Made by a program: the position numbers and the translations under genes
In this document: positions 22,922-64,000 of the stretch, one piece after another
Numbering within the stretch: the first letter of the stretch is position 1
Layout: each line of letters opens with the position of its first letter
Assembly: GCA_044892525.1 (NCBI GenBank)
Contig: CM097886.1
Coordinates: 99,448,001-99,512,000, forward strand
DNA: 64,000 nt
Direction of reading: 5' to 3'
Source of the DNA: Schmidtea polychroa
Taxonomy: Eukaryota
Notes under the pieces: generated by a model
What the model saw: only the letters and a program-made list of their open reading frames with translations
Database searches by the model: none
Told to the model about the DNA's origin: nothing

Positions 22922-22960
22922 CACGATTAATTTCGACAGTTTTCCTGTCATCATCAGGTG
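22922..22960 (-). ncRNA. Inverted copy of the minimal hammerhead motif
   Basis: Exact reverse complement of 23926-23964. Confidence 0.6.
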
Positions 22961-23964: not shown

Positions 23965-23970
23965 AAAAAA

Positions 23971-34100: not shown

Positions 34101-37100
34101 CAATGATTAAAACATTTCAAATTCTTAGACAATCGGATGTACCGATAAAAGATAATCGGTAGCATCGGGAATCGGTCAAGCTCTAATAAAAATAACAAAT
34201 TATCTAAAGCTAAAATTTAAACATCAAAAAACCCGTCATTGTGATGAATTATAGCTAGTGAAAATAATAATAATAATAACCAGGAGTTTTAGTGTATCCA
34301 AAAATGTTAATAATTTTCTCTTTTGTCGGTAAATCTGGAATTTCATTGAATTTTTTGTTGCTAAATCAAAAACATTCCTCAATACCGATAGAATTGAAAA
34401 TGATAAAAATTTCACAGTACAATTACATGTTAAAATCGAAGCAAATAAAAATATTCCTAGGCCAAACTATTCCAGTTGATGTCATCACAAACCAATAGGA
34501 AATATTTGAGCAAAAAAAATCCAGAAGGATTTAGAAACTGGGAAAACAGAATTCGAAAAGTTTAAGTTTTCCACTATTTCTCAGTTATATATGCGCATGT
34601 CTAATTACAATTATATTCTTCACTCCAACTCTACAGTCCCTCATTTGTTCCTATATTGTTGATACTGATACTGAAAATTGAATATATAAAAGTAGTTCTC
34701 CAACTAAATTTTGGGAAAATAAATTATTATTAGATATTATCACGTAATTGTAGGATTCATTCATTCCCGTCCCTTATGACTTACAGTGCACAGACATGAG
34801 ACACCTTGCAATCAGGGCGTAACTATGGCGGGGGGTGCATTCTCTCACCCCCCAATAAATTATTGATTACCAAATATAAATTAGGGATGAAATATTTTAA
34901 AAAAAACCTTTATTTTGGTTTTGTTATGAGAATTGAATGAGAATAAAAAAACAATGTATATTTTTAGTTTTTTTTTCAATTCAAACCCAAGACTACAACT
35001 ATGCTTGCGCTAGCTATTCTCGTAGTTTTTCAGTCTTTTCGGCACAGCAAAGTACATAGATGAGTGCTGGGTACATGTATCACTGTACTCGGTTACACGC
35101 GTACCCCCCACCCCACTTCTCCGTATTTCTATTTTTCCGTGTCAACTTTTAACATTGCTAGATGAATTTTATATAATTAATAATTTTGCCCCCCCCCCCA
35201 CCTGAAATCTTGGGCTACGTCCCTCTTGCAATTATATTTTCCTTATAATTAAAATTTCATTATAAATCCAATCAATCCAGCTCCATTTATGCTCCTCATT
35301 TCATATGGGAAAACTCGGAAAGTTAGTCAGCGATAACCATAAAATAGAAATTCCAAACCATTTGAAACCTTAATCGAATGTAAAACTGCCATTTAATGTA
35401 GGGGAAAGCAGAAACTGACCCCAATAACAACGCATCTCATTACAATAGGATTGCTAATGCCTACCAATCACACAAACTATGAACCCCGGATTATAAAGCT
35501 TCATTTCTTGACCCTTTTGATAGCCAACTTTCTCTTGCCTAAATCCTTCACTGTAATCATTGAAATAAAAATAATATTGAATAAAATATATTTAAAAATT
35601 GATTGCCAATAATTAGAAATATTTGGGCGATGGTCTAGAATAAGGATATGAAAAAAATAATAATAATCAATTAAAAATTAAATAATTAATAAAATATTTA
35701 AAATAATAAATTTTGATTCCTTAAAATGAAAAAACTTCCAAATCTCTTCGAAATAATCGAAATTACAAAAGAAAGAATGAAAACAATCGAGTATTTACAA
35801 TCTAAAAATGTTTTAAAAAGTGGATTTAATTGTACCTGTGGCAAGCAGATGTCATTAGTAAAAAAAAATACCTTAAAAGATGGTTATATTTTTAAATGCC
35901 CGAAAGCTTGTTCATCATTTTCGGTTAGAAAAAAGAGCTTTTTTGAGAAATCCAAAATTTCTCTCGAAAAGTTAATCTATTTAACGTATTTTTGGGTCAT
36001 GGCCATACCAACAAAAAAGGTTCAGATAATGTTAAAGTTATCAAATCAAACAATGGCAGATTGGAACAATTTCTTGTCCGAAATTTGCTCGACTTCTTTG
36101 TTGAATTTAAGTGAAGATGAGTTCAAAATTGGAGGTCCGAATTGTATCGTCGAAATAGACGAAACACTCATTTCAAAAAAAGCAAAGTACAACAAAGGAA
36201 AACGATATCCGGAAGTTTGGATGTTCGGTGGCATTGAACGAATAACAAATAAATGGTTTGCAGTTATTTTAGAAGATAAAACAAGAGAAACTTTAATTGG
36301 ACATATTAAAAAGTATATAAAACCAGGAACAACAATTTACTCTGATATGTGGCCCGGGTATTACACTCCACACGAATACAATGGAGGGACACTGGGGCAA
36401 TCTAAAAATGGATCTGCGGGGAAGAAGAGGCTGTTCCTTTGAATCTAAAATGTCATTTATTGACTTCAAGATGTGGGTTAATCGGCAGAAAAACAATGAA
36501 GAGCATTTATTAAACATGTATTGGATGGCCGTTTCTGCTATTTATGAATAAATTTATGATTCGATATTATTTTAAATATTTTATTAATTATTTAATTTTT
36601 AATTGATTATTATTATTTTTTTCATATCCTTATTCTAGACCATCGCCAATATTTGGATATAATAAAAATGGACAAATATTTGAACAAGAAAAAACAATAA
36701 TTCAATCAAGTTCATCCAGGCAGTTGGTGTTTGATTGCCATAATCTCTTAATGGGATCATACATTCATAATTATAAGGACGAATTTATAAGATTTAGGCA
36801 TATGATAATCAAGCTTGCCTCAATGCCATCACTATATAGATAACTCAAAGTAAACAATTGAAGCAACCCATTGCTAAATTAAGGTGTTAAAAGTATATTT
36901 TATCCTTATCGTTACAAAGTATCATATTTAGTCAATAATATATTCTACAATTGTTAAACTACCAAAAAGCATTAATGATTTGCCTTACCAGTAATATAAA
37001 GAAACCAAGGATAAATCGTAGATTTCAATCATCTGTTGATTAACCACGATAAAGATTAATTAAAACATTATTATTTTTACTTTTAATCTTTGGACTTTAG

Positions 37101-42520: not shown

Positions 42521-45500
42521 AAGGTTTAAGACTGCTGGAGGTGGTTGTCATAATACCAATAAATTGTCTGGATTTGGTGAAAATCTAAGTTAATAATTTA
42601 TTGATTATTTAGAAGATTCTTAACTTGGCACTCCTCACTGATGATAACCTTAACTGGACTGGATCTGAGATATCAATAACCCCAATTTTAATGACTTAAA
42701 TGATAATAATGTCCCGATTAATACGCAACAGAATTTTAGGAAATGCAAAAAGTGGTTGGCCCGAGAATCTTTCCGTTTTCTCTCCGCGATTGACCAGTAT
42801 CATTGGGGACCTTAAATGGGCCCTTAGAATTGTCCGTGTCAATCTTAACTATGGATAATGACCCTAATAACGACGACACTACTAGTGATAATCACGCTCC
42901 TAATAATCTCAATGCTAATAATAACACTAGGAGTACTAATGGCAACAATGATTATCATACTGAAATCAAGGGCAATAATTATAATAATTATGCGAAGGAT
43001 AAAAATTTAAGAAAAATTCTAATATTAATCCTTCTGATGATAATACAAATGATAGAACTTGTGATCGTTATAATGGCGGAACTTATTGTTGGGCTAGAAC
43101 TGATTTCTAGACCCAAAATACTAATTGTGACTGAAGCGCGTAGGTACACAGCAAGAAAAAAAGCACCAAGTATAGTTAAATATTAAAACCTACACCAAAT
43201 AAACAATATTAACTAAAGGAGAAAGCAACAAAAACATAAACAAAGAAATTAAACAAAATTATACAAAAGCAAGAAGTGATGCAAAAATCTAACTCAAAAA
43301 TAACCAAATAAACACAGGGTTACAAAAAACAGACTCGAATAACTTAAAAGACGATAAAAACAGTAAAACATTCCAGAAAAACCCAGAACATTCTATAAAA
43401 ATGGCGATGACCATCACAAAAGTTATCTAGAACAACAAAAGTTAAGGAAAATAAATAAATTAGTATTAAAAGTAAAAAATCTCAAAAAGAATTCATAAAA
43501 ACATCAGTTAAAATAAAAATTAAATTAAAAGTAAAATAGAATGTTCTGGAACCGTTCCAAATCCATCATGGACGTAAAATTAATGAAAAATAATTAAAAA
43601 ATAAAAATATAAAAATAAAAACAAAAATTATGGCACAAAAATTGCCATTAAAAATAGCAAAATCGTAAAATAGAAAATTCTGGAATAAAAAGAATTCGAG
43701 TTTGTTTTAATGCATCAATACATACACGTGTACTAAATAGGTATATATACCGACACGTTTCAGTCACAATAATCACTTTTATGCCAAATTTTTGTGACGA
43801 AATTTCCAAAATCGATAGTAAGCATTGATCTTTATTTGTATATTAATTGTTTAATTATATAGATGGTATTTTAAATTTATTTTTTTTTTTTTTGCTTAAA
43901 ATTTTTTGCGATGTATGAGTGATCAACGGCGTACTGGTATTCCTGCGTCGTTGTTCAGTCCTGCATCCAATTTATTAAAATCGTTATTAACAGGACATGC
44001 AGACACGCATTATCATTATTATAGTGATATTTATTATATGATTCCTTTTTGTTCGGGTCAGCCGGAGGTCGAACTACTTCATGGTCCTGCCATGGAGTTA
44101 GGTCGAGGAAACCCTCCGCCTGACTCTTCGTATTTATTTAAGGTCAGCCGTAAATGGTTGACTTAGCACACAACACTAAGGTTTGTGGACGTGGTCACAG
44201 TGGGGCCATGGAAGCAATATTCTTCCCGACTCATTGCGTAATATACAATTAAACTCAACACTTAAAATCCTGAACAATAACTCTACACTAAGGTTCTAAT
44301 TTGAGTAGAGCTCGTACCTAAAATTACACAATTCTACACTCACATTAATGTAGCTAGTTGATTCATAATGGTAATTTCAATTATACTTAGACATATGCCG
44401 AACTAGATTTTGTAGTAAGGATCTTTGATAAAGTAATAGAAATAAGAGAGATATTCGGCATACGTACAGGTATAACTTGATCTAGATATGCTGATTCCGA
44501 GTAAAGATAGACATTTTAAATCTAGTTCCCACTTTAAAATGTTTGTAAATGTGTAGGCTCTTAGTTATAATATTCTTGTTGTTAACTATAAAACTATAAG
44601 TTATAAATAATTACGATAGCTAGGTACAAATCACGTCGATCCTGAAAATGTAAATTGTTAATGGAGAAAGTCTGATCAGAGATAGTAGTAAACAATTTTT
44701 CGTATAAAATCAACTTAGGATTGGTTACAGATAGGCGATAGACGCGCTAGAACCCTGAAGTTTAATCCACAAATAGGACCAGGAAATCTGTAAGTACTGC
44801 GGAAAACAATGTTGATCATAGAAAGGAAGTTGTAAGAAGTATATTCCGTCGACTAAAAATTTCAAATTATAAAGTACGAAAATACGAATTACAAAAGTAT
44901 AAATTTTAGATTATAAACTTATAAATTATAAGTTAAGCAATTATAACTTATAAAATATGAATGTATAAATTTCAAAATATGAAATTATAATTATAAATTA
45001 CAAGATGGTAAATCCCTAAATTGAAAAATTTTAAATTATAAATCGAAAATTATCAAAGTATAAATTATAAAACATAAATTTATAATTCTAAAACATGGGA
45101 TTATAAAATTGTAGTTATCATAATCCTGATCATTTCTCTTGTTATTACTATTAGCAGTATCAACATTATCATTACTATTAGTATTATTATACTTATTCTT
45201 ATTATTATTATATTATTATTATCATTATTATGAATATCATAATTAGTATTATTATTATTATCATCATTATCAGTACCATTATAAAAATTTATTATTATTC
45301 TTGTTATTATTATTATTAGTATTATTATTATTACCATTATTAAAATTTATTATTATTCTAATTAGTATTACTATCATTGCTATTATTAATATTATTATTA
45401 TCATTATTATTATTATTATTAGTATCGTTATTTCATTGTTATTATTATTGGTATTATTACAGTTAACTACAAAAAAATCGATATCCCAATCCGATAACGA

Positions 45501-45982
45501 TCACCTGGAAATTTAGAAATTAGCAAATTAAATAAATTACTTGTATGCAGAGCAAACCACTCATAACGAGCACAACCGAAGGAAAGGCAAGCAGACGAGA
45601 AGCTAAGCTCGTTGTTAATACCTGTCGCCTCAGCGTACCCGAATTTAGTGGCAAAAGATTTAAACCCTGAAATTTTAAATTCGTGATAATATTTACATTA
45701 AAATACAAAAAATATAATTTAAATGTTCACTTAGTGATAAATACAAATTTAGAGAAAAATAGTTAATTAAAACAAGAGGATGGTTGATAAATTTTTTTTT
45801 GGGTTATTAGTAGACAAAATATGAAATTTCATTCTATGGTTCCTAGGATTATAAATGTTGGTCTTAAAATAAAATATTTCTTTTCATTTTCAAATTCTTA
45901 AAGGGAAAAAGGGTCAACAAAATCCTGTGTTTAACGTCGTATTACAATCAGTATAAAGTGGCTTGATTGTTCTTTTGTAGAA

Positions 45983-46348
45983 ATGTCCTATTCTGACAGT
46001 GATAGTAACGAAGCAGCCGACCGGCAGATGCTTACACGACTCCGGACACGGTACATATGGTACCGTATCCATGATTGGAACCGGGGCTTGGACCTCGACA
46101 ACTGGGGCCCAGTAATCAGGAGTGGGCCGGAACCGGACGCCCCAGCGTGGGTAAAAACAGAGCCCACAAACGATTTTTTGCAAGAGGCCCGCGACCGAGC
46201 GGCCATCGAGGTAGAAGCAGCTCAGATGCGACTCAAGAAGATCGAGCTACAAATCCAAGCAGAAAAAGAGGGAAAAACCGTGGAGGACCTAGAAGAGGCC
46301 GAGGCAACCCCGCGGAAGAGGGGAAGGCCTCGCAAGCGATTGAACTGA
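45983..46348 (+). CDS. LTR-encoded 121-aa AT-hook protein (copy B)
   Basis: PRKRGRPRK and VKTE motifs; ortholog of 25645-26010 with many synonymous differences. Confidence 0.75.
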   Translation: MSYSDSDSNEAADRQMLTRLRTRYIWYRIHDWNRGLDLDNWGPVIRSGPEPDAPAWVKTEPTNDFLQEARDRAAIEVEAAQMRLKKIELQIQAEKEGKTVEDLEEAEATPRKRGRPRKRLN

Positions 46349-46558
46349 CTCATCGTCAAAATTTTGTTTTTGCAAATTATCATTCAGTTGTGACTTTATT
46401 AAACTTTGATTTTAGTGATAATTATTTCAGTCCTTTTAATAAATCATCTTGTGTATTGCGTACTTGACATCCGAAACTATGTTTATTTATAATATTGATT
46501 TTATTTTATAATTGAATGAATAGCATGCTGCAAGAATATAATCGTTGAATTTATCTAG

Positions 46559-47028
46559 TGTTCAAACTATTGGAAAATCTGCGAAGAGATAGGGCAGAAG
46601 CTCAAAAACAGTCCGAGGAGCTCCGCATACGCGTAGACAAGCTCAAGGGACGGTGCCGGGAACTAGAAAGCACCTGGTTTAGTCCCGAGGATATGAAAAA
46701 GAAGGTGGCGCAGGTCCTTCAACTGCAGACGCAAGCCGCGCAGGATCAGATGGAGATCCGGGCACTGAAGCTCCAGCTCCGCGTGCTAGAAACCGAGCGA
46801 AATGAACAAGTAGTTCACGGAGCCGCCATAAGCCAAATCCGGCCGTTGACCGTGGAACTAGCAGCAATATACCCCCCGGCCGCGAAAGAGAAACCCAAAA
46901 GAAAGCGGTTAGGCCGAAATATTCGGGAAAAATTGAAGAAAGCTAGACTGGCCGAACACGAGCGACAAGCAAATTTGTCACTGGCAGCTGCGACGGAATT
47001 GACCAGTCCTACCAATAAGCCTGTTTGA
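46559..47028 (+). CDS. LTR-encoded coiled-coil/basic protein (copy B); no in-frame ATG near its start, likely spliced
   Basis: Homolog of 26368-26837 with a TAG|TG acceptor at 46557-58. Confidence 0.7.
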
Positions 47029-47433
47029 ACTTATATTCGGTTTTAGGTGTTTTGTAGTATTTTTATGTATTGTGGTAGTCTTCAAATAATATGTTCCTTG
47101 TTAAAATACTGCACGTTTTGTAGTGATAAAATAAGGACTAGTACAGTTTATGATTGCCTGGGAAATGAGAGTTGTGCATAAGGTTGGGAAAACAATTTTG
47201 ATAAAGGGACCTGAGAAATCGGACACACACCTTCTATCGGTAGTCCGTGAACCCACGGAGTACTCGACAACTATAGTGCTTTGATGCGCTCACTTTTTGC
47301 GAGTACTCAACCCTTGGTACAGTACCAACGTTGATCACTCAACGGGTACCAAGCGGAAAAACAATGTTGTATTTTGGGTTACGCTGGTAACAGCACTCAA
47401 TCATTCAACCACCAGTAACCCACCATACAAATT

Positions 47434-47451
47434 TGGGGGCTCAGCCGGGAT
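47434..47451 (+). promoter_or_regulatory. Primer-binding site, tRNA-Pro type
   Basis: TGGGGGCTCAGCCGGGAT is 16/18 identical to the canonical Pro PBS TGGGGGCTCGTCCGGGAT and lies 8 nt after the LTR end. Confidence 0.85.
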
Positions 47452-48151: not shown

Positions 48152-48634
48152 ATGGAATCAACCGGCTACATTACAAAGAGACTCGAAAAATTCGTAGATT
48201 TAACACACAATTCGTTACAACGGCTAAATCGCAAAGCGGACCAGTTGATAAAAATCCAAGATGAGATGAGCTTGAATCCAAGGCCGCAAGCTGAGGAAAT
48301 ATGCGTAATGATGAAAATAGCGACACCTAATGCAGAATTGACCACTAAAAGAGTTTATCAACTTCAAAATTTACGATTAGACAATGCCAAATTTAACATC
48401 AAATGGCAGGAGATAATGATAAAAATGGAAACGATCGAGGAAGAAATTAAAGAAGCAATCGAACATCAAGTTAAAGATTTTAGAAAATGCTTCATATGCA
48501 GAACCAATGAAATACGAGTAATGACGATTCCATGTGGTCATTTATGCTACTGCGAGAATTGCGCAGAGAAAATTAAACGATGCAACGTATGCGATACGAA
48601 TGTTAGAGAGAAAATTGTAATATACCTCCCATAA
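48152..48634 (+). CDS. 160-aa coiled-coil protein with a C-terminal C3HC4 RING of IAP type (no BIR domain visible)
   Basis: CFICRTNEIRVMTIPCGHLCYCENCAEKIKRCNVC..VREKIVIYLP-stop has RING-HC spacing and an IAP-like hydrophobic tail. Confidence 0.85.
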   Translation: MESTGYITKRLEKFVDLTHNSLQRLNRKADQLIKIQDEMSLNPRPQAEEICVMMKIATPNAELTTKRVYQLQNLRLDNAKFNIKWQEIMIKMETIEEEIKEAIEHQVKDFRKCFICRTNEIRVMTIPCGHLCYCENCAEKIKRCNVCDTNVREKIVIYLP

Positions 48635-50041
48635 GGAGATGTTGTCAAATAAATTTCTTGTGAATGAATATGAAGTGATAAAATTAGTAAATTATATTAA
48701 AAATCCATTATAGCAACCGAAAGGTGTAAAACATACGATGAACATAGACATATAAAGGACACAAAATACGTTAAATAAATAGACAAGCAACACAGCAATT
48801 AGAACTAAAATCAAAGTTGAATGCAGGACTGATCATAGTCGTATGAATGAGCTGATCGCTAAGATCAGTACGATTTTTATTTCCAATTTTCTTTTCTTCC
48901 TGTTTGTTATTTTGGCATAAAGAGATACGATAATGAGGGGATGACAAGTGAATAGTCCTTACGACACTTGCCCGGATGGGGAAATCCTGATCACCCTGAT
49001 GAGAGAATGTAGTAGGATCCATCGCAAATGTTGGGGAGTTTCTGTCCAGTGACTGATCACCACTTGTGGGAAACGAACCAACGCGATTATTATATTTTTT
49101 GTCTGGGAGACTGGGACTAACTAAAAGGGCGAATAAAAATAGAAAAATAAAATAAAAATTGAAAAACGCGCGCTAAACGTTAAAAATTTAATCCGAGAGC
49201 AGCTGCGGATTTGAAGAAACCGTTTTTGGACTTCAAATCAGATGAGAATAATGATTTTTCCCTAGCGAGTGATGAGGCACCCGAGTACAGCGGCTAACCA
49301 CCGGACTGTAGTGTCCAGGAGATTATCGGCCAAGGGACTGATGATGCTGGATCACCCAATACAAAAACCCGGATGCCACACCGAGTATTGGGCGCACTTT
49401 TTTGAGTTGCTAGCGGGACTTGATACAAAAACCCGGAAGGGTAGCGAGCGAGAGAGACCCAGTTACCTACACCGAGTATCAAGGAGCCCAGTGAAACGGT
49501 TGTGAGATGCGAGTCAACCGGTAAAGGACTCGTACTCAACAGGCAACCAAGATTGGACCAGTTGTGAGGCGGGAGACCGAGAGTCAACTGCATACCCAAT
49601 TTCCTTTTAGCTTCACTAGTCGGGAGATCTGGTTCATCACTTTTGAGAATCACGATCAAGGCGATTAGGCATTTCCGTGTTTTTTAAATCCTGATAGATA
49701 GGATGTTTTTTCTTCGTGATTATTGCTAGCAGGGGTCGGTACAAAACCCGGATGCCCACACCGAGTACCGATAGGCCCAGTGAAACGGCGATGAGATTAG
49801 AGTTACCGGTATTAGACTCTTTTCAATAAGCGGCCAAGAATTGAGCCAGTTGTGAGGCCTCAGCAGATTAAGAGTTGGAGTAGGAGGAGCCTCGAATTTT
49901 TGATTAGCCCGAAAGTCAACTGTCAACTCAATTTAATCGCGGTAGGGACGATAGTAGGTGTTAAAACCGAAGGCGTCTGGGGGTTGAAGAAACCTCATTT
50001 AGGGCATTTGAAACCGGTCAGGGACCGAAGACCGCGAATAC

Positions 50042-50483
50042 GGCGTAATGGTGTAAAAGCCCAGGCGTCTAGGAGTCGTAAAAGACTTCAATTTTGATTA
50101 AACCGGCCGGAAGCCGATGCCGACGCGGAGGTCTAACAAACCAAAGCGTTGATGGATAATAGTAGAGTATATGGCGTAATGGTGTAAAAGCCCAGGCGTC
50201 TAGGAGTCGTAAAAGACTTCAATTTTGATTAAACCGGCCGGAAGCCGATGCCGACGCGGAGGTCTAACAAACCAAAGCGTTGATGGGTAATAGTAGAGTA
50301 TATGGCGTAATGGTGTAAAAGCCCAGGCGTCTAGGAGTCGTAAAAGACTTCAATTTTGATTAAACCGGCCGGAAGCCGATGCCGACGCGGAGGTCTAACA
50401 AACCAAAGCGTTGATGGGTAATAGTAGATTATATGGCGTAATGGTGTAAAAGCCCAGGCGTCTAGGAGTCGTAAAAGACTTCA
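50042..50483 (+). repeat. 131-bp tandem repeat, ~3.4 near-identical copies, in the element's leader
   Basis: Units start at 50042, 50173, 50304 and 50435. Confidence 0.95.
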
Positions 50484-51554
50484 TGAGATTAAAATGAGTT
50501 GATTAAACCGGCCAAGGAGCCGATGGTAATTGAGTGAAATGATTTAAATGAAAATAAAGGAGTTGAACAAACCGGCCAGAGAGCCGATGGTAAATAAAGG
50601 TGGATGTAGAGGTCGCGCGAACCAAAGCATCAATGATTAACTATGAAATTGATTAAACTGAAATAGATTAAGTGCGATAAATATGTAATGAGTAGAGGAG
50701 AATTATGATAAAGCGCCGGCGCAAGCGAAAATTAAACCAGTTTTTGGATGGGGAAAAGCGAACGAATAGATAGTAGTTGAATTATTGAATTTTATTTTGA
50801 TATTTATGTGATTAATATTATATTTCTATGATAATTATAAAAGGGATAGATAATTGATACGACTATATAGATAATTGATACGAGTTATAGATAATTTAAA
50901 ATCAACTTAAAATCAAAATGGGGCGAATAGCGAGAAGTGTAGAAAAGCTAGAAAATTTGAAGCGAAGGGACAGTAAAATAAAGGGAAAAGGAAAGTAAAT
51001 GAAGGGTTTAATAAAGAGAATTTATGATATGTACTAGAGGTGTTAATTATTTTAGAATAAAGCAAACAATTCAGAAAGAAATCAAAGAAATCAAGAAAGC
51101 AATAGAAATCAAGAGATATAGAGAAATCAATTAGAAGCGAAGAATCAAGGAAATTAATAAAACCAAATCCAAGAAGAGTTAGAGAATCGTAAAGATTAAA
51201 GCGAGAAAAATACTTAGAAAACATCGAGCTCGATTGACAAAGTAGAAAATTTATCAAAGGATATTAAAAGGAGGAAAAATTGATAGCATAGCTAACCGAA
51301 CGAGACGAAAAAGTAAAGGAAACCTCAGTTTATTGGAAAAGGAAGAGATACAAAAGGCCAAGACCAACAGAAAACTACACAGGAAGCCAGCATCAGTAGA
51401 AACAGTATTTGAATCAGACAGTTTAACAAACGAATTTGAGAACAGCGACGATCTTAAACGAACCGAACTAGATCCGATAAGTGACATTGAATCATCAGAC
51501 GAGGAAGGAAATAGTTCAGAGTCAACCAATATAACAATTTTGTGTCAAGAAATA

Positions 51555-52538
51555 ATGACAGACGGAATTCCAAATGTAACAGGGCTAACGGACCCACCGG
51601 AAACAAGTAATGTGCACGTCAACATTGGAGAATTCAGAGAGAAATTTCGAGGAGAGCCATTCGATGGAAATATAAACCAGCTGGAAACGTTTATAAAGGA
51701 ATTCGAAGTATACATTACGATATGTCACTGGCCAGACATAGTCGTACGAGAACGAATACCCCTATATCTAAAGGGAAGCGCCCAAGATGTATACTTGGAG
51801 GCGAAATGTGATGCAACTAAGTTGAGAACGTGGAAAGAGATCAAGGAATTTTTAATAAAAACATTCGGTACCGAAAAAGAGGGAAATCGGAAAATGTTAG
51901 ACTTTCTGCATCGAAAGCAGAAATATAACGAATCCAACGCACTGTACGCATGCGAATTGAGACGACTAGCACGAGAAGCCTTCGATTCAAATCAACCAGT
52001 TCCGGAAGACAAAATAATAGCCGTATTCGTAGATGGCATGAAACGGGAGGATATACGAGCAACTTTGGGATGCCGAGCACCAGAGACGCTGGAAGAAGCA
52101 CTAAAAATAGCTAACAAATGTGAAACTTACCTAACACCAATACAAGTAGCAGCAATGACAGCAGCCCCAGCAGCTCCAGCAACAACAGCAACAACCACAA
52201 ACAACCAAGTCAATAATGCAAATCCAGTAATGAATCAATTCATCCCAGGATCGCAACAGTTGTTCAAAACTCCACAAACAAGAAACCAAAACAATGGAGG
52301 TAATATTCAAAATTTTACTAATAATTTCAGGAACAACGACATCAACAATCGAACGTGCAACATATGCCAACGACCAGGGCATTGGAGCAATGAATGTTAT
52401 AAAGCAAGGATGTGTCAAAAGTGTGGGAGAAGAGGCCACACGGAAAATGTCTGCAGAGGACCCATGATGTCTATGAGCAGAGGAGGAACCAGAACCTGCT
52501 ACAATTGTAATCAGCCTGGACACATGGCAAGAGAATGC
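51555..52538 (+). other. Polyprotein domain: Gag capsid-like region with three CCHC zinc knuckles (52356-52538)
   Basis: FRGEPFDG..WPD..LYLKGSAQDVY..WKEIKEFL; CNICQRPGHWSNEC, CQKCGRRGHTENVC and CYNCNQPGHMAREC. Confidence 0.9.
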
Positions 52539-55500
52539 ACGATGAGAACCAAACCAAATCAACCAGGATCAAACAATCCAGTTCAGAACACACAAATCAA
52601 CCTCATGCAGGAAATCGAACAATTAAAAGATATGATCCTGCGAATACCGACTAATAACCAACAACAACGAATCAACATGATGCAGAGCACCGAGGAAATC
52701 CGGAACCAACCAAGTAAGCAACAACAAGATCAGCAACGAGTCGAATGGCAAAGATTACAAAACGAGGAAGCCAGAGAAATTCAAGAAAGATGGAAACAAC
52801 GGGAAGCGAATCCCGGAAGAATAAATATGATGAGATTAACAAATAAAGAGGAATCGCACACTGCGGAGCAGTGTGTTAACAACGACGGGAGTGAACCGAT
52901 AATAAACAAGGAGATAAAAACGACAAAAGAAGATGAGATTGATCCACGAACAGAATTGAGCAGTGAAGAGAAAATACAATTGATTAAAGAATTTACCAAA
53001 GAGGAGAAAGAAAGGAGACAAAAGAGAGATGAGAGTAAAGACGAACCAAAAAACAATGAGATAATTACAAAAAATCGAATTCAGAGGGTACTACTACAAA
53101 AAATCGAAGACAGAATCAAAAACGAAAATCCTACATTAACTGAGGAACAAATAAAAGAAAAAGTGAAAGAGCATTGGTTCAGGAAAAATGAGTGGTTTGA
53201 AAAGAAGGAACCACATACCAAAGCTAAAATAAACATGCTGAGACAAATGCGGAGCGATCAGACGGATCAGGAAGATGAGAAAAGTGAGGTGAGTAGCCTG
53301 GGAGGCGAATTATTTCAGTCAAGTGAGGAAAATAACGAACCGAAAACACCTCCAAACAGTGAAACACCTCAAAGTAGTGAGGAGAGTGAAAATGATGACA
53401 TGAAATCAATGATAGAAAAAGATGAAGAAGAGATATTCGAGGAAATTCTCGACACAGTAACAGAAATAGAGCGAAATGAGAGCTACATCAACGAGTTAAC
53501 ATACAGAAAATGCTTAAAACTTATAACTCAAGTATACCAGTGTGAAGGAGGTATAATAACGGCAGCATGGAAAGATTTAGCAACAAAATATAAAGAGAAA
53601 CTAAAGGAAGCAGGCCCAGATCAATATCAAGTAAGTATTCAACACCCCGAGATTCAGATACAGACTATTGAATTAAAAGGAACAAATACCGATGAACTGT
53701 ACAACTGGGTACAGGAAAAAATGGGAACGAGCCATAAAAATAAACAATTATATGTCGATGGTTACAAAGTTAAAATGGGCATACATTTGGTAGATGCGAT
53801 GATATGGCCAAACGAAACTAACATCTTAACCTTAGAGAAAACCAGAGATGACGACTCGGTAGCAGAAATGTTCAAGAAAATCCAACAAGTGTTTAACAAT
53901 GAAGTGGAACCAGAATTGGAAAAGATCGAACGAAAAATAATGAAAGAAAATCAAATAATCTTAGTCAAACAAGCTATCGATCAGACAAGGAAATACATTA
54001 ATAGACTGAGAGAAAGATGGCCACAACTAATGAAACAATTCGTTAAAGACGTACGAGACACGGAAATTATGAGATTCGAAGACAAACGAGCGACAGAATT
54101 GATATCTAAATACGGAGAATACGAGAGAACCAAATGCGAGCATGAAACGATGAAAATAAAGGTGAAGTTGCCAAATGAAGAGAAACAAATAATAGAAGTT
54201 AATCCCGATTGCCAAGTTGACGAGTTAGTGCAAATCATAGATCAAGAGATCATCCAAAAAGCTCGAGAAAATAGTGAGGATGGAATGATCGAAGATGTGA
54301 TAATAATGTACAACCGGCACATGCTAGAAAGAGGAGACCGAACTGTAATTTACGAACTAGGAATCTGGGAAGATGGAGCCGTCATCAATATAATCGCGAT
54401 GGATGAACCATCTGGTGGGCACAAAAACGCCACGAAAACCGAGCAACAAATTAAAAGATTCCAATGGGGAATGAGGGCAAAGATGGATCGAATAATAGAT
54501 ATTTATAACCATTGGCTAAAGGATGATAAACTAAAACTAGCAGCCTTCAATGACGAAGATTGCAAACTGATACCATGGAAAAAAGTGTGGATCGAAAGTG
54601 AAGCTCGATGGGATTGGGAGCAGCAAAAGTTGGAACCAAATTGGATAGATAATATACCCGAAGAGATCGCAGCAGTATGGGTAAGAGAGAAACCGATCGA
54701 TACTTACCAGGATATATTACCACAAGAATTCCAAAATGAATTACCATCAGGAGAAGATGAGGAGATACGAGAACCGGTAAAGTTAGCACCATTCACGTGG
54801 AAAATTGAGAATTGGATGGAAAAGATAAAATCAGCAAAGGAAGAGAAAATCACACGATTAGTAAGTCCACCGTTCTACTCAGGATTAGGTGAGTACAAGA
54901 TGAAATTGCGAATATACCCGAACGGAGACGGGATAGGTAAAGGAAGTTATGTGTCGGCATTCTTCGCCATCTGCAAAGGAAATTATGACGACAAGGTACC
55001 ATGGCCGTTTAGCAGAAAAGTGACGATAGCAATCGAACCATTGAAAGATAGCCTTAACATGCATAAAGAAACATTGAAACCAGATCCAAGGAGCGCCTGC
55101 TATCAACGACCAACAACATCAGAAAATATCGCTTCTGGGACACCTAAATTAATACGTCTAAGTTACATTGAGAATGAGCAGTCAAAATTTGTGAAAAACA
55201 ATGCTATCCAGATCAGAGTAGAAGTTGAAACAGAACAAGAAATGAACCAACGACTGAACATACCAGAAAATCAACCGAGAATCTGTATGATGAGGAGAAG
55301 AGTGTCTGATTCAGGACATCTACCAATAGACGCAGATGCAGATGAGGAGGAAGCAGCAACATTGTTGGAAGCACAAAAATGTAAGGAGTTGATGGAGATA
55401 TTACAAAACGGGGCGAAAAATCGTCGACGAGCGGTGGTAGAACTAGCAAAATGGATAGCCGAATCATGCAAAAGGATTCAAAATCTACGAAAGATCGTTA

Positions 55501-58500
55501 AAGCGATTGAAGAATATAGACGGGTATACGTATGGTACCCTGAACAATTTGGTGAAATCATCCGGAAATGGAAACAACAAGAGTGGGCCGAAAACTCACC
55601 TGAGAAATATCAATTAAAAATATTCATGCCAGATTTTGAACCAATGGAAAAGGAATTCTATACGACAGCTAAAGTCAGAGAAGTTAAAAAGAGAATACCT
55701 TATGAACTCCCATTCCACTTACAACACGAGGGACGATCATTAGACGACGATATTGAGATCGGTGTGACACCACTCCAAGGAGAAATTGTGAACAGATTAA
55801 CGGTGAGTAAAATTGCAGGTAGAGAGCTAAGGAGAAGAGAGATAAAGCAAAAATCATCCACCCAACAACCAGGAAGTTTGGACACACCAGAAGTTCCAAA
55901 TGCGGTTAGTGAAGTGACGATCGAAACAACGGGAGAAGACGAAATACTGAATGAATTACAAGAGATAGTAGAAGCAGGCGAGATTATGAGAGCATCGCAA
56001 TCAGGAGATCTATTTATCGACGAAGGTGAACCGACAACTGATGATTTAGATGGATTTGTATGCGCGCAGAGACAACCAGTGGAAACGACGGAAGCCGAGA
56101 CGGATTTAGATAACGTGGAAAGAGGTGCCAATAAAGATGTAACCACAACCGATGAATGGAGCAACTGGAGAGTAGATCCAGGAGCGACCACGTCAAAAGA
56201 TACAACTTACAATCCGCCAAAACGGAAAGAAACCGGAACAGCTATGGATCGACGAACAAGAGGAAGACCAAAAACAGATAAAGCAGAGATCGAACCAAAA
56301 TCCAAAGTTCAGGCGCAAATGGAGCAGGTAAAAACTAAAATGGATAAACTAAGTGCATTAGTAAAACAAGTGAAAGTGAAGACAAGCGTCCGAGAACAAG
56401 GGACACGATGGATAAATGACCTATTAGCCAACGTGTTAGCATTAGCAAATCCAGAAGTGAAAAGAGTCATGAGGAAGGATAATATTCCGACCGAAGCCAA
56501 ACAATTATGGGCAGTATTGAAACCGATAATAATGAAAATCATGGATAATAAAATTCGATTAACGTTAAAAGATCCCGTGGAACTCAGATTAATTGTGGAA
56601 CATCTATTAAGCAGATCAGAGGACCAAAATCGATTTTTAGTGGGATTAGCATATTTAGTATATAACGTTATCGGTCAATATAAAAAACGAATGCCAAAAT
56701 ATAACGCAACGGGTTACGAATTCACAGTAACAGAAATAATTAAACGATCAATAGAACCATATATACTTGAACAAGGGGGATGGAGAAGCTTCATCGAATC
56801 AACTGGGAAGAAAGATCAAACGGAAATGATGCAAGCAAAGTTACGCGATTTGCTAACTGAATTCGAAGGAACAATCAATATAAACGACCCAAGAGCAAGT
56901 CGAAAGGGAATGAATGCCATAATAACCACGATATTGATATGGATGATGTGTATCAAAGGAACGGAGTCATTTGCAGTATACGACTGCGACAACATAAAAA
57001 TCCATGAGAAATATTCATTAAAGGATACGGAAGACTGTAAAGCGGCAAACCCAAGAAAATTACAAACAGTCATGGCATCAGTCTCGTACAACGTATATCA
57101 AGAAGCAGATTTCATCAAAACTATGGTCCAAGAGTGTACGGTAACCAGAAAGATATTCGCACATCACTGCGGTTCATCCTCACACTCAACAATCATAGAA
57201 CCAGGATTGGAATCGACAGTAATATTACTATCAAGAGAGGAATGCGAGGAAGGGTTCCGATCAGGGAGAATCCACTTAAGGCAAGGGATTGAAATCGCCG
57301 CAGAACCAGGAAAAATAAAAACGACTCGCGTATATACGGCGGGCAGAATCACTAAAGGAGACGGAACATGTGAGACAGGAACATACACCTTGAACGGACA
57401 ACTGGTTAGTGGAGTGGTCGTAATAGAAAGTTACGAAGCTAAATTGGAAAAGTATCAAGGCTACTTTGACCCTGACACGCAAGCAATGAAGAAATACCCA
57501 AGCTGTCTCGCATCAGATCGATCATGTTCAACCGGAATGTCAACTCTGGTATACCACGCAGATCAGAAAGTATGTCGACTAATGTTACTCAAGACAGCAG
57601 TATTCGAAGAAATCCAAGGGAAAGTGTACAGTGAACCAAAAGGAGAAGCAGAGAGACGAGCGATGGAAGAATTGAGAGCAAGGAAAGGATTCAGGGAAGA
57701 CGTAATAACATCGAAATTGGAATCGGAAGTAACACCCACAGCGATAATCTCCAAAGACGATGGAATAGGAATGAGGTTCATAAAGAACAAAATGGTGAGT
57801 AAATGCGATGAGATGGTGATCAGCACCAATTATAAAGGGATCTACTTGTCGCGGAGAACCCTAGCAAATGCAGTCGGAAGACTAAGCGAAAAGGATGTCA
57901 AATTATATTTATACGCTAATAATAAGATGGATTTCTTATATCACAGAGGATTAACATCTACGGAAAAAGTCTACCATGATCTGTTAAGAAACGATTGCCT
58001 GCTCAACAAAGAAATATTGAGAACAAAATTAGCAATGGCGATTACAAATCCAGATAACGCAATTCCACTACTACCATTACAGGAAGGATATTTCGGACGA
58101 ATCGTGGGCAAAGTGATGTACACCTACCAATGCAAAAAGATAATGGCAAGATTGCCGGAAAACCCTACAATACCAAGGGATAAGTGTGCAAACGAACTCG
58201 AAATTATTCACGAAGGTAAACCCAGGTTTGTGCAAGCAGTCACTAGGATAATGAACCCGGTAGGGTTTCAGCCAAATCTGTTCAATTGCAGTAATGCATA
58301 TGGACCAATGTATGAAAAAGAAGATGGACAATGGGTTCAATTTCCAAGTAAAACAATCGTAGTGACACCCAAGAAATTTGGATTGACGGAACTAACAACA
58401 GAATTAGAGTTCAAGCCGATAGACGTATCACAGAGTGGATTATATACACCAAAAGATCTTGAATCAGCAAGGGCCCACATGTTATTCCCAGCACACAGAC

Positions 58501-61500
58501 AAGCGATCCTATCAAATATAGTGACTATTTCTGGAGGAAATAATTATGGGGAGAGCCCAAATTACGAGCTATTATTATCACCAAGTCACTATCAACAAGC
58601 AACAGCAAACATGATGAAGGCTATGTGGGGTCGATTTTTGGTATTTGGCCAAATGATGGCAGGAATACTCGGAATTATTCTGATAATACAAATAGTCAGA
58701 GTAATACTAACCCAGATGCTAGCATGTTTTGACATCTATAAGCGCGAGAGAAAAGTAAATTGGAAACTTGCAATTGGATTCTTACCGTTCTTAGCGAAAA
58801 CAATGGTGTTGCATGGACACTCAAAGGATATTCATCGAATAAAAAGATTGTTGAAAATACTAACGCAAATGAAAGGGACAGACGAAGAAGTCGGACGTAA
58901 GTTCAAAGTGATAATGAGATTAGAAGCAGAAAGAACTCAAGAGAAAGCAAAAAGAACCGGGAAGTGGAAAAAGTGGATGAACCTCAGACGAGACGATGAT
59001 AGTGACAACGACAATGATGATTTCAACGACGATGATAATAACCAAGGAGGAGCAATGTTGATAAATAAAAATACAGCCACTTGGGAAAACGAAAAAATGA
59101 AACCATGGGGATCACCGTATTCACAGACCCCATATTTACAAGCACCAACTAATGGACCAATGCGACGACCAGGAACAATGAGAGAACGGATAAGAATGGG
59201 AACCGGAAGATTACCCATACCGAACATTTATCCAACAGCTTATGAACCAAATTGGGCAGCAATGGATCCAACGATGATCAAACAGGCTAAAAGTGTAGAA
59301 CAAGAAGTGGAGACACGAACGATTGCGGTATTGCAGACACCAGCCGGACCATCATTAACCATCACGGTCGAAGTAAACGGAATAGAAATGGATGCAATGA
59401 TCGATACCGGAGCAAATATTTCGGCAATAAATATGAATATGCTACCAGGCAGACTATGGCCATGCATTGAAGAGACAACCATGGATGTAATAACATGCAG
59501 CAAACAATCCATAGCGGTGGTAGGAAGAGTATGGTCAACGATTGAATATAAAGGGGTTAAAGTTACAACGTACCTCGCAGTCATTAGACAGCTAAGCGTA
59601 TCATGTATAATTGGAACAGATGTAATGCCGGAATTATTGAAAGAAATTGTGATTGATTTGAGTTCCATGAAATTAAAAGATAAAACTGGACAGATATGCA
59701 CAATGAGAACAGAAGTGAGATGCTCCGAAAAAATGATAATACCAGCACGTACCCAGACAATATGTTATGTCAAGGTCGATAACGAAGCCAAAGGAGATAT
59801 GATATTTGAACCAAGTCAAAAATTCGAGAAGAGAAGGGAGCTGCCATTGGCAAGAGAAATTGTCAGTATAAATGAGGATAACGAGATACCCATCAATATC
59901 ACCAATTTTGATGAGGAAGATAAAGTAATCTACGAAAACGAGAGACTTGGAAAACTCACACCAATGATGAACATTGAGCTACCGGAGATAAAAAGCGAGG
60001 GAGCAGACGAAAAAGAATTATGGACCATCGATAGCGAACTCCTAAATAAAGACGAAAAGGAACAACTCAGACAACTACTGATTGAGTTTAAAGATATTTT
60101 TGCGGCTTCAGATTTGGAATTGGGTACTAGCGATGTAACTCAACACATTATACCATTAACAGATGAGACACCCATAACGTTAAGACCATATCGATTGGCT
60201 GAAGCACAAAAAACGGTAGCAGAGGAAGAAGTACAAAAGATGTTAGATGCTGGGGTAATAGAACCTAGTTGCTCACCATGGCAATTCCCAGTGGTAATGG
60301 TCAAAAAGAAAGATGGCACACAGAGATTTTGTATTGACTATCGGAGGTTGAACGCAGTAACAAAAAGAGATACATATCCACTGCCAGACATAAACGAAAT
60401 GTTACAGATGTTGCATGGAGCAGCATACTTTACATCTTTAGATCTAAAGAGTGGATACTGGCAAATTAAAGTTAAAGAGGAAGATAGAGAAAAGACAGCC
60501 TTTACCATCGGAAAAGATTTATATCAGTTTAAAAAGATGCCATTTGGATTAACAAACGCACCTGCTTCGTTTCAGAGATGTATGAACTTTGTGACACACG
60601 GGATCAAACAATGTATGGTGTATATCGATGATCTGTTAATTTATTCAGGTACTTTCGAGCAACACTTAATCGACATCAGAAACGTATTCATAAGACTGAA
60701 ACAATGGAAGCTGAAATTGAAACCGTCAAAATGCGACTGGGCAAAGGAGAGAGTCACATTTTTAGGACACATTGTGTCGGCAAAAGGAAAAGAACCAGAT
60801 CCGAGAAACATTGAGAAAATAAAGAATTGTCCGATACCAAAAACCGTGACTCAGGTACAAGAATTTCTGGGATTATGCGGATACTACCGCAAGTTTATCA
60901 AAAATTATGCAACTATCGCAAAACCAATTCAAGAACTAACAAAAAAAGATACTCCATTTCTGTGGGAAAGGGAACAGCAAATAGCTTTCGAATCGCTAAG
61001 AGATAAACTAATAGCCTCGCCTATCTTAATCCACCCAGATTTCAAAAAGCCTTTTTTATTAGCAACTGATGCAAGTGGATACGCATCAGGAGCTGTGCTA
61101 GGACAATGGGATGAGGAGAAAAGAGAAAGAGTCATCGGATATTATAGCAAGACGTTCAAAAAACACGAGAAGAATTACTCGGTCACAGAAAGAGAGGCCT
61201 TAGCAATAATTCAGGCGATAAAACATTTCAAATATTTATTGTGGGGACACGAGATAATTATTACTACGGACCATCAACCTCTAGTTTGGTTGGGCCAACA
61301 TAAAGAGGCATCTAGTCGATTGATGAGATGGGCAATGCAGTTACAAGAATATTCTCCATACATCAAATTCAAGTCAGGAAAAGCAAACGCAAATGCAGAC
61401 TGCATGTCGAGATTTGTATTTGAAGAACTCATGGATCATGACGTCAGACGAATATGCCTGATAATCGCGGAAGATATCGATTTTACCAATCTAAAGAACG

Positions 61501-64000
61501 AACAAAAGGAAGACAATGAATTAAAACTAATAATTGAGTTCCTGGAAAAAAACGATATGAAAATATTCAACAACGATGATCGACTAAAAGAACACATGGA
61601 GAAAAATCGTCACAGATATACGATCGAGAAAGGATGGCTATTGGTAATGGATGGCGACAAACGATTGATGTGTCTACCAGAAAGTAGACGGAAAGAAATT
61701 ATGATTCAATACCACGATGGTAAATTGGGCGGACATATGTCAGCCAAGAAAACAGAAGCAAGGCTCAAACAGAAATATTACTGGCCAAATATGAGCGATG
61801 ACGTGAAAGAATGGATAAAGAACTGCCTGATATGCGCAACCAGAAAAACAACGGGCAGTAAACTAAAGCCACCATTGAAACCAATGCCGATACCGCCAGA
61901 ACCGATGACAATGATTGCAATGGATGTAGTTGGACCACTACCAGAGACTAACAGTGGAAATGTGTATATATTGGTAATAACTGATTATCTGACTAAGTTC
62001 CCTGAAGCATTTGCGATGCCAGACCAGAAAGCACGAACGGTTGCAAGGATATTAGTGGAAGAGATCTGCTGCAGATATGGAACACCAAAACAAATCTTAA
62101 CTGACCAAGGAACTAATTTCATGAGCGAGATAATAAATGAAGTGACAAATTATTTTAGAATTGCCAAATTGAGAACCTCACCATACCACCCGCAAACGAA
62201 TGGTCAGACAGAAAGATTTAACGGCATACTAATAGACATGATGTCCAATTACGTGAGTAAACATCAAAAGGACTGGGATGAATATATTAAGTTGTGTCTA
62301 ATGGCTTATCGAATGTCAATACACTCAGCAACGAAAATGAGTCCGTTTAAACTCATGTATGGAAGGGAATGCAACATGCCGATGGATCTCGAATACCAAC
62401 CGCCAATCTCACAATATATGGAGATAGATGATTATGTGACAAAGTTCAAGGAGAGAATGCAAGAAATATGGAAAACCGCAGGGATGAACATCCGATTCAA
62501 CCAAGAGAGTTATAAGGAATTACATGATAAAAAGAAGAACGTGCAAAACCATCAATTTAAAATCGGAGATTGGGTTATTATAGAAACACCCGAATTAATC
62601 CCAGGAACAGCAAAGAAATTACAACGTAATGGCAGAGGGCCATATGAAATCATCTATGTAAACGAGAACAACGCTAGAGTGAAGTTGGTTAACAATCCAC
62701 TAATTAGACCTATTTATGTGAATACATGTCGATGCAAAGCAGTAGCGAAAACTGCCACTAAAGACCCAGAAACAAGAAGGATAATCACGAGATCACAAAC
62801 AAATGCCACAACGGAACCAGAAGTAAGCGGTAGATTAACTAGATCACAGACAAGACGGATATTCATGTTGAGAGGAGAAACAAGCAGCAGCGCCCATAAA
62901 GGAACTGAAGCAGAAAGCGAAGCGGACGCAATGGCAAGGAGCCAAGCAACATGGAATATGACAGTAAAAATAGCACGAGAAATTGTACCAGAATGGGCCG
63001 ATATAACCAATAAATACCAAGTGTTGGGCAAACTAATGTTAGTAGCAGAAAGATATGCGAAAGGACGAAGATATGCCGAAGGATTACAAATACCGACTCA
63101 AATATATGAACTAATCCGGAGATTACCAATCATGTTCCTAACAAGTGATTTGAGTAATAACTGGCCAATCCATCATGCAGTGAAAGCAGGACAAGAAAAA
63201 CGAGCTTTAGAGATTATACGAATAATGGAAAACTGCAAACAATCAACAAACGTCAAAAACAGTAAAGGAAAAACTCCACTGATGAAAGCCATAGCAATAG
63301 GCGCGTCAAGAGATGTACTCAGAGAATTATTAAGAACGGGATCCACGCTGAAAGAAAAAGACAACAAACAACGAACCGTATTACGTTATGCCGTCAGGTC
63401 AAAAAGACCTAGTATAGTGAACTTTATCACAGGAAATGCAACAACCGAAGAAGCCGAGGTATTGGGACAGAGCATTGAACCAATTCTGGAAGCCATCAGA
63501 GGAAACTTAGACAGAACCGCAGCAATATTAATCAAATGGAAACAAAACGAATTAAGAGCGGAAGTAATTGATATAAATCAATTCCAAAACAACGAAAATA
63601 TCGTACTAAGAAGCGCCATATACTCAAGACCACCAATGCCAAAAACCATTAAAGCAATATTACAGAGAAATAGAACAGAATTGACAGGTAATTGGTGGAA
63701 ATGCACAAAAACACATGCGATGAAAAAGCAACTAGAAATACTAGTGTGGGAATGGCACCGGAAACAACGGAAATATCAAGGAACCAAAGAAGAACGAGAA
63801 AGTATCCACAACGACAAAAAAGAGATAATTAAAAAATACGAGGAGATGATCAAAGCAGCAAATGTCGAGGACGACATTTTCAGGAAAACCCCGGGTGAGA
63901 GGAATGACGACGACGACGACGACGAAAGGATGGGGGATAACGATAACAACCCAGAGGAAAACGACAGAGAACAGAATCCGGAAGGCGGAGAAACAACGAG
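51555..64000 (+). CDS. Gag-cargo-Env-Pol polyprotein, at least 4148 aa, 3'-incomplete (frame open from 51246; first ATG 51555)
   Basis: Line-by-line hand translation found no stop from 51246 to 64000. Confidence 0.93.
   Translation, partial: [4148 protein letters not shown]
53625..53840 (+). other. Polyprotein domain: ubiquitin-like domain 1
   Basis: [46 protein letters not shown]..ILTL follows the ubiquitin beta-grasp pattern. Confidence 0.55.
54150..54419 (+). other. Polyprotein domain: ubiquitin-like domain 2, ending in Gly-Gly
   Basis: [61 protein letters not shown]..SGG aligns with ubiquitin MQIFVK..EVEPSDTIENVK..LIFAGKQLEDGRTL..LRGG. Confidence 0.7.
54792..55229 (+). other. Polyprotein domain: TRAF-type MATH domain
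   Basis: [69 protein letters not shown]..IRVEV closely follows the TRAF2/3/5 TRAF-C sequence. Confidence 0.92.
55608..55805 (+). other. Polyprotein domain: ubiquitin-like domain 3
   Basis: [46 protein letters not shown]..LTV. Confidence 0.6.
56400..56798 (+). other. Polyprotein domain: Bcl-2-like helical domain
   Basis: BH2-like [16 protein letters not shown] (compare Bcl-xL LEPWIQENGGWDTFVE) and a degenerate BH1-like [11 protein letters not shown]. Confidence 0.6.
56910..58730 (+). other. Polyprotein domain: chuvirus-like envelope glycoprotein (signal 56910-56969, ectodomain, TM ~58623-58730)
   Basis: The Cys/motif pattern YDC..[65 protein letters not shown].LGI matches my recollection of the chuviral G family. 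Confidence 0.8.
59330..59660 (+). other. Polyprotein domain: retroviral-type aspartic protease
   Basis: [10 protein letters not shown] (DTG at 59403-59411) and CIIGTD. Confidence 0.92.
60140..61412 (+). other. Polyprotein domains: reverse transcriptase and RNase H
   Basis: RPYR, [32 protein letters not shown], YIDD (60621-60632), FLGH; RNase H TDAS, E(REALA), TDH and ADCMSR. Confidence 0.97.
61713..62720 (+). other. Polyprotein domain: integrase (HHCC, D-D35-E, GPY)
   Basis: H..GH..CLIC; D at 61923, D at 62103 and E at 62211 (35-residue spacing); GPY at 62637-62645. Confidence 0.97.
63162..63660 (+). other. Polyprotein domain: ankyrin repeats (3-5) C-terminal to integrase
   Basis: [26 protein letters not shown] and [14 protein letters not shown], plus further degenerate repeats. 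Confidence 0.8.

Follow-up and report, generated by a model that had tools for sequence, protein, structure and literature searches.

A giant Burro/GYPSM1-type retroelement in a planarian genome with cell-death-related modules kept under purifying selection

Introduction

The window analysed here, that is, the whole stretch of 64,000 nucleotides of Schmidtea polychroa (G000:C2:99448001-99512000, in a genome of 781 Mb), carries a Ty3/Gypsy retroelement of the planarian Burro/GYPSM1 type that is young, present in many copies and equipped with env. Its IAP, TRAF, Bcl-2-fold, ubiquitin-like (Ubl) and ankyrin modules are kept by selection and likely keep the cells that express them from dying. It is a clear case of a retroelement gathering host death regulators as complex viruses do. 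The element type, the domain list, the hypothesis and, as reported in the accessible part of one source, a functional test of the IAP are already in print, and meddling with apoptosis and ubiquitination has been proposed for Burro1/GYPSM1 (PMC6431247). What is added here is support for the Bcl-2 fold, signs that each module is under purifying selection and a probable origin from host TRAFs, together with a Ubl-Bcl-2-Env core common to smaller sister families. This core hints at the order in which the cargo was assembled and at a membrane-anchor idea that can be tested. The proposed NF-kB link loses support.

The Element, Its Reading Frame and Its Copies

The whole LTR element extends from 43087 to 77535 (L002:3535), over 34.45 kb, and is thus longer than the 30 kb that Burro/GYPSM1 elements exceed. 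Positions beyond the window are given in the stretches next to it, L001 and L002, where L001:1618 is 65618 and L002:3535 is 77535 in continued numbering. The backbone of the element comprises the following features:

43083-43086: target-site duplication, 4 bp, just before the 5' LTR
43087..47425 (+): 5' LTR, 4,339 bp, TG...CA ends, found by self-BLAST
47434..47451 (+): likely primer-binding site, from the sequence after the LTR end
51246..64000, on to L001:1618 (65618) (+): polyprotein frame, 4,791 codons stop-to-stop, first Met at 51555
51618..52550 (+): Gag, capsid-like region with three CCHC knuckles (zf-CCHC in Pfam), similar to the Gags of the sister families
56958..58925 (+): Env, Monjiviricetes-type fusion glycoprotein (PF24664, E 7e-67), transmembrane segment at aa 2472
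59361..62405 (+): Pol, with protease (DTGA), RT (YIDD), RNase H and integrase (D-D-E)
L001:9197 to L002:3535: 3' LTR, beyond the window end

The two LTRs differ by 1 mismatch in 4,339 bases, and the likely primer-binding site probably resembles a tRNA-Pro site. The polyprotein runs in the order Gag, three CCHC, Ubl1, Ubl2, MATH, Ubl3, Bcl-2-like domain, hydrophobic leader, Env, protease, RT, RNase H, integrase, ankyrin repeats and, at the C-terminus, a membrane-bound extension. Env lies in frame between the Gag and Pol parts (PF24664 falling between Bcl-2 and protease), and the catalytic motifs of Pol are intact. Past the window end there follow an ORF of 153 aa, the ORFs of a complete TRAF and of a BIR-RING IAP, two further ORFs that are probably coiled coils, and one with likely signal and membrane segments.

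Searches with the Bcl-2 segment yielded 743 candidate copies, of which 150 were scored (96-100% identity), and a frame of at least 4,770 aa is present in 77 of these 150. Selection was estimated from 33 copies, 30 of them spread over the ranking of the scored list and 3 taken from a second search, that are 91-99.9% identical to the window copy; omega is a simple, uncorrected count based on variants shared by at least two copies. By this measure, the segment between protease and RT, which is dUTPase-like in Burro/GYPSM1, is conserved (omega 0.00) and has no Pfam match.

Upstream of the first Met of the polyprotein, 103 codons (51246-51554) are open with an omega of 0.22, and the open frame and purifying selection together suggest a non-AUG start or a spliced leader. 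The leader region also contains a 131-bp tandem repeat (50038-50483), whose copy number differs between element copies. Two ORFs lie within the LTR (45935-46348 and 46549-47028), one of which ends in an AT-hook-like basic motif, and both are found again in the 3' LTR as well as in remnants of older LTRs. Beyond the window, the C-terminal extension of the polyprotein (L001:2-1618) has two hydrophobic segments, and L001:5137-8838 holds the two probable coiled-coil ORFs and the ORF with likely signal and membrane segments; the extension and these ORFs are under purifying selection (omega 0.14-0.25) and have no convincing Pfam family. The neighbourhood of the element within the window includes:

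20518-27234: older LTR-derived remnant, 85-89% identical to the element LTR, interrupted by a 341-bp inverted-repeat insertion (22916-23970)
28512-29405 (-): host PHAF1 exon
35717-36442 (+): ISXO2-like transposase, inside an 88-bp inverted repeat (35621-36652)
38864-40828 (-): hAT-type transposase

RING, IAP and TRAF Modules

A first-pass annotation had placed five domain types (IAP-type RING, TRAF MATH, Ubl, Bcl-2-like and ankyrin) within 48152-63660, and all five lie there, on the plus strand. RING, MATH and ankyrin pass their Pfam cut-offs, the Bcl-2 call stands by profile and predicted fold and Ubl3 holds fairly well, whereas Ubl1 and Ubl2 are weak. The RING, IAP and TRAF modules are:

48152..48634 (+): free-standing RING ORF, 160 aa, helical N-part and IAP-type RING (aa 113-147)
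54792..55226 (+): TRAF-type MATH of the polyprotein, Pfam 100.6 bits against a cut-off of 32
L001:2275-3738: complete TRAF ORF, beyond the window, with RING, zinc fingers, coiled coil and MATH
L001:3879-5057: BIR-RING IAP ORF, beyond the window, BIR at 59.1 bits

The free-standing RING reaches 46.4 bits for Pfam zf-C3HC4_3 (cut-off 27), its best PDB matches are the RINGs of cIAP2, cIAP1 and XIAP (E 6e-10), and its Cys/His residues are kept in 29/29 covering copies; Pfam detects no BIR in this ORF, which has the IAP-type RING only. The BIR of the IAP ORF shows the C-x2-C-x16-H-x6-C pattern. This ORF and the full TRAF lie 2-5 kb past the window end and thus outside 48152-63660, and the polyprotein carries MATH alone, without other TRAF parts. 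The polyprotein MATH is TRAF3/5/2-like, with TRAF3 as its best PDB match (E 8e-32).

The RING of the element TRAF shows a C-x-C variant that is common to all five RING-bearing single-exon TRAFs of the host genome. The element TRAF scores 150-213 bits against host-genome single-exon TRAFs, with 26-29% identity to host-genome TRAFs; among 12 database TRAFs, the three that group with host TRAFs, and also carry C-x-C, score 195-226 bits, and the remaining nine 76-132 bits. One host-genome TRAF (L193) is 71% identical over 356 aa to Dugesia japonica TRAF2-like A, which, for this single gene family, points to a dugesiid planarian host, as for Burro/GYPSM1. In MATH trees, host-genome TRAFs and D. japonica TRAF2-like A are on the same side as both MATH domains of the element, with support of 97/92 in the larger tree and 87/84 in the second, both trees being unrooted and most database rows unlabelled. 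The larger tree separates the two element domains, but a single clade is not rejected (p-AU 0.23), so that the data fit one capture as well as two. The element TRAF is, thus, likely to be an old, fast-evolving capture from a flatworm host, and the phylogeny against host paralogs that had been proposed as a check places TRAF/MATH on the host-TRAF side, without singling out a TRAF donor. A host IAP donor was not found: BIR matches in the genome are almost all in element-sized frames, and one other locus has only a short BIR piece with 30% identity.

Bcl-2-Like and Ubiquitin-Like Segments and Ankyrin Repeats

The remaining cargo of the polyprotein consists of the following segments:

53619..53840 (+): ubiquitin-like segment 1 (Ubl1), tentative, E 0.016 against the sister-family Ubl profile
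54144..54407 (+): ubiquitin-like segment 2 (Ubl2), tentative, UBX/OTU1-like, E 0.024 against the same profile
55602..55811 (+): ubiquitin-like segment 3 (Ubl3), E 1.8e-4 against the same profile
56373..56825 (+): Bcl-2-fold domain, from the element-sequence profile and predicted fold
56910..56954 (+): hydrophobic stretch (hydropathy 2.0 over 15 aa), predicted to be the signal peptide of Env
63168..63431 (+): about three recognisable ankyrin repeats, downstream of the integrase; Ank_2 39.1 bits against 27.3

As a single sequence, the Bcl-2 segment has no Pfam match and, in the PDB, only a BH2-sized match with E 0.5; a fold predicted from it alone (pLDDT 42) was unusable and was discarded. A profile built solely from five element sequences leads to Bcl-xL/Bcl-2 (E 2e-4), and the element profile matches a host Bcl-2 profile with 95.6% probability, against 65% for the window sequence alone. 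Among five models built on the element alignment, one has a pLDDT of 66.7 and a pTM of 0.67, and the other four stay at about 43 (none above 44). When the better model was submitted to a structure search independent of Foldseek, the top 34 rows were Bcl-2-fold proteins, with the first unrelated row at Z 6.0, and the best match of this moderate-confidence model was Bfl-1 (Z 12.2, rmsd 3.7 over 137 residues). Foldseek again returned the Bcl-2 family, but with no E at or below 0.001. A structure-atlas search with the segment gave only low-recognition unrelated matches, and homologue searches gave nothing for polyprotein aa 1400-1950, nor for the Bcl-2 profile among longer proteins. Profile and model together support a Bcl-2 helical fold in 56373-56825.

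The BH2 motif I-x-x-x-GGW is invariant in 33/33 copies, and the BH1 motif NWGR is replaced in the window element and in all three sister lineages. Nevertheless, only 2 of the 6 aligned host Bcl-2 proteins have exact NWGR themselves, so that little about function can be read from its loss. The hydrophobic stretch lies 45 aa after BH2 here and 23-51 aa after it in the sisters, at the same position in 3/3 sister families.

Other Bcl-2 loci are present in this genome. A cluster of seven with near-identical score (L034-L040, G000:C4:89.9-90.8 Mb), taken as host genes, has NWGR intact in the two loci examined. Moreover, multicopy inverted-repeat elements with short Bcl-2-like ORFs occur at G000:C1:15386001-15426000 and C1:34756001-34796000 (L062-L069), the first locus with a protein-primed polymerase B and the second with an integrase; their Bcl-2-like ORFs resemble a host locus (L045), and these elements make up a second lineage of mobile DNA that carries Bcl-2.

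Of all domain calls, those of the Ubls are the weakest, Ubl3 being fairly well supported and Ubl1 and Ubl2 tentative. A profile made from the sister families only leads to ISG15/ubiquitin, as does the joint Ubl profile, and Ubl2 matches Pfam OTU1_UBXL with E 2.3e-4, just under the cut-off. There is no C-terminal Gly-Gly after Ubl1 or Ubl3, and a GG shortly after Ubl2 is not kept in the closest database protein (P0003). Ubl3 is preceded by a helical segment (55347-55595) with no shared amino-acid change among the 33 copies (omega 0.00), and similar helical segments precede the Ubls of the sister families. These segments have no credible Pfam or PDB match, and an atlas search of the helical-Ubl3 part gave none that was usable; a BAG or TFIIS-N fold was considered, and no credible Pfam or PDB match supports either.

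The ankyrin repeats bear on the first-pass proposal of a coherent toolkit, in which each module would sit at a canonical node of the TNFR-TRAF-cIAP-NF-kB pathway or of the mitochondrial BAX/BAK pathway, with IkB- or vankyrin-like ankyrins. The proximity of the RING to cIAP/XIAP and of the MATH to TRAF3/5/2 speaks for such a scheme, as does the modelled Bcl-2 fold, which matches cellular and viral Bcl-2 proteins. However, the repeats, present as described, have generic PDB matches (designed repeats, ankyrin-1/2, KIDINS220 and NompC), with no IkB in the best 60 of 92, and the accessible part of PMC13563047 describes no clear NF-kB homologue in Schmidtea mediterranea, only seven divergent RHD genes. 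In addition, NWGR is absent, and the modules are spread unevenly among sister families in a way that suggests stepwise assembly. A single pathway thus seems quite unlikely. An RHD search of the host genome returned no match and is uninformative here because none of its controls gave a match either.

Retention and Selection across Copies

Each segment is covered in 28-33 of the 33 copies, most losses being large deletions or insertions in single copies, although decayed copies are under-sampled since copies were taken from the best matches, and the Bcl-2 region is retained by construction because copies were found through it. Among the cargo, omega is 0.13 for the RING, 0.14, 0.12 and 0.03 for Ubl1, Ubl2 and Ubl3, 0.25 for MATH, 0.07 for Bcl-2, 0.09 for the ankyrin region (aa 3971-4140), 0.07-0.22 for TRAF parts and 0.04-0.29 for IAP parts. 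The reference domains RT and Env show 0.00 and 0.03, and the controls 0.53-1.1 (four non-coding stretches read as codons) and 0.7-2.6 (shifted frames). The free ORFs are intact in 25/29 (RING), 28/30 (TRAF) and 24/30 (IAP) covering copies, and the zinc ligands do not vary among the copies that cover them. Every cargo domain is, therefore, mostly retained and under purifying selection in the 33 sampled copies, and neither the failure of the calls nor the variable loss that would have spoken against the first-pass reading was observed. The inter-domain linkers are also constrained (omega 0.13-0.20), so that low omega indicates a maintained protein and is not proof of an anti-death role.

These data weigh against the idea that the domains are neutral passengers from abundant host transcripts, kept only for their in-frame place upstream of Pol. 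Capture would be easy, as planarian TRAF/MATH genes are very numerous, with many loci in the host genome analysed here and, according to the accessible part of PMC7586133, more than 121 transcripts, and an in-frame position guards against stops. Nevertheless, amino-acid changes are depleted (omega 0.03-0.29 versus 0.53-1.1), also in free ORFs unprotected by Pol and in the ankyrin repeats downstream of the integrase. The passenger reading is largely refuted by the selection data and appears highly improbable.

Sister Families and Possible Order of Assembly of the Cargo

Genome searches for Bcl-2 (weak matches in other long frames) and for Env uncovered three shorter Gypsy lineages that also have env, namely A with 13.4 kb, F with 17.7 kb and G, represented by a broken copy of about 14.5 kb:

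L055-L056 (G000:C1:210860420-210873809): family A, Gag-Ubl(s)-Bcl-2-Env-Pol
L074-L076 and L077-L079: families F and G, Gag-Ubl(s)-Bcl-2-Env-Pol

These families may be the published Burro-2/3/4. The RT of the window element shares 48% identity with that of A and 52% with that of F, and a Bcl-2 Pfam match lies directly before Env in A, F and G (E 2e-6, 4e-3 and 1e-5, all under the cut-off), family A being colinear with the window Bcl-2 segment. No MATH, ANK, RING or BIR could be detected in families A and F. After Pol, family A also has a second ORF, of 722 aa.

In a tree with long branches, a split supported at 89/92 sets the four element Bcl-2 domains apart from the rest, which is compatible with one old capture. 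The presence of Ubl and Bcl-2 in sisters without MATH, ANK, RING and BIR suggests stepwise assembly, and the simplest reading would be that an old core, Gag-Ubl-Bcl-2-Env-Pol, was extended later in the giant lineage; the trees, being unrooted, would also fit a less simple course in which MATH, ANK, RING and BIR were lost in the small families. A wider proposal, which we regard as tentative and somewhat less probable than its opposite, is that the whole lineage, from 13-kb to 34-kb elements, has a Ubl/Bcl-2 leader anchored by the Env signal peptide, so that synthesis of the fusion protein would plant a death-blocking Bcl-2 on the membrane, and that two TRAF modules, two IAP-type RINGs, a BIR and ankyrins were acquired afterwards, in the giant family. 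Outside Grohme 2018 and Lee 2026, no literature joining flatworm retrotransposon, Bcl-2 and envelope glycoprotein was found, and bioRxiv yielded no preprint on a Burro BIR or caspase.

The same core could mean that the modules mainly serve the cycle of the element itself, in polyprotein folding or processing, Env insertion, particle assembly or the ubiquitin-driven removal of silencing and restriction factors, with cell survival as a side effect or a matter of the IAP only. In four lineages Ubl and Bcl-2 hold one fixed place, in frame and immediately ahead of Env, as would suit a structural role; none of the four has kept NWGR, and Burro is reported (PMC8532177, accessible part) to be piRNA-repressed. 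However, the needs of assembly hardly explain why the element preserves the zinc ligands of the BIR, the two IAP-type RINGs and a complete TRAF in ORFs of their own, and the phenotype reported for the Burro1 IAP (PMC13465017, in the portion available) concerns stem-cell survival. A mainly self-serving role is, on balance, rather unlikely.

Proposed Mechanism

In the preferred reading, that of modules that likely protect expressing cells from death, the polyprotein would be divided by the protease of the element. A motif resembling R-I-(N/C/F)-M, which was defined after seeing the sequence, recurs at aa 450, 475, 525, 661, 1345, 2692, 2816, 3402, 3871 and 4558, flanks the protease as well as the RNase H/integrase and integrase/ankyrin borders, and is a putative cleavage site. 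Cutting there could free a Ubl1-Ubl2-MATH piece, a Ubl3-Bcl-2-leader piece and an ankyrin piece. Cellular Bcl-2 proteins carry a tail anchor, and the Env signal peptide might hold the cleaved Bcl-2 module on the membrane in a similar manner, where the module may work non-canonically, since it is without NWGR. The free BIR-RING IAP would be the main brake on caspases and is the most direct anti-caspase candidate, and the TRAF, the lone MATH and the BIR-less RING could act as adaptors or decoys in the expanded TRAF survival signalling of the host. The cargo would thus be an accreted survival kit, and not a copy of the vertebrate TNFR-NF-kB pathway. The earlier suggestion that the element manipulates host cell survival keeps its direction, as the element has a true IAP and a TRAF and an IAP role is reported for Burro1 (PMC13465017, accessible part), whereas the coherence of the pathway was overstated.

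Comparison with Known Systems

Viral Bcl-2 proteins (ASFV A179L, KSHV Bcl-2, BHRF1, M11L and vaccinia N1/A52/A46/A49) seem to be of the same fold class as the modelled domain, which matches A179L with Z 12.1 and the vaccinia proteins with Z 6.5-8.8. Viral Bcl-2 and baculovirus IAPs follow the same logic of captured death regulators; in contrast, the domain considered here is part of a retroelement polyprotein fused to an Env leader, and there is no sign of descent from them. Planarian single-exon TRAF2-like genes, such as D. japonica TRAF2-like A (ADF47429.1), agree with the element TRAF in their domain order and in the C-x-C variant of the RING. In S. mediterranea, TRAF RNAi raises cell death and a TRAF network is needed for cell survival, as stated in the accessible part of PMC7586133.

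The closest system is Burro1/GYPSM1, with a 4,873-aa ORF1, three CCHC, MATH, Ubi2/SUMO-like, BCL2, in-frame env, ankyrin and BIR (PMC6431247 section 7, Arkhipova and Yushenova 2019). Both elements exceed 30 kb, encode a polyprotein of about 4,800 aa and have a Ubl between MATH and BCL2, Env before the protease, ankyrin after Pol and a BIR; three Ubls, a BIR-less RING ORF and a complete TRAF ORF are not mentioned in section 7 of PMC6431247. None of the 3 BURRO1 oligos published in the accessible part of PMC8532177 matches the element at up to 4 mismatches, a search of the whole genome with one of them, allowing up to 1 mismatch, found nothing, and the closest database protein, P0003, is a fragment with 48-51% identity and the same Ubl-Ubl-MATH order. 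By its architecture this is a Burro1-type element, and, given the absence of an oligo match and the distance of the nearest protein, it is probably the counterpart in a related planarian. BURRO1 RNAi failed to rescue smedwi-2(RNAi) animals, which addresses a different question (PMC8532177, accessible part). According to the available portion of PMC13465017, Lee et al. (Dev Cell 2026, doi 10.1016/j.devcel.2026.03.001) reported that the BIR-RING protein of Burro1 (B-IAP) guards stem cells against apoptosis mediated by caspases, and the element described here carries a corresponding BIR-RING ORF, which lies outside 48152-63660.
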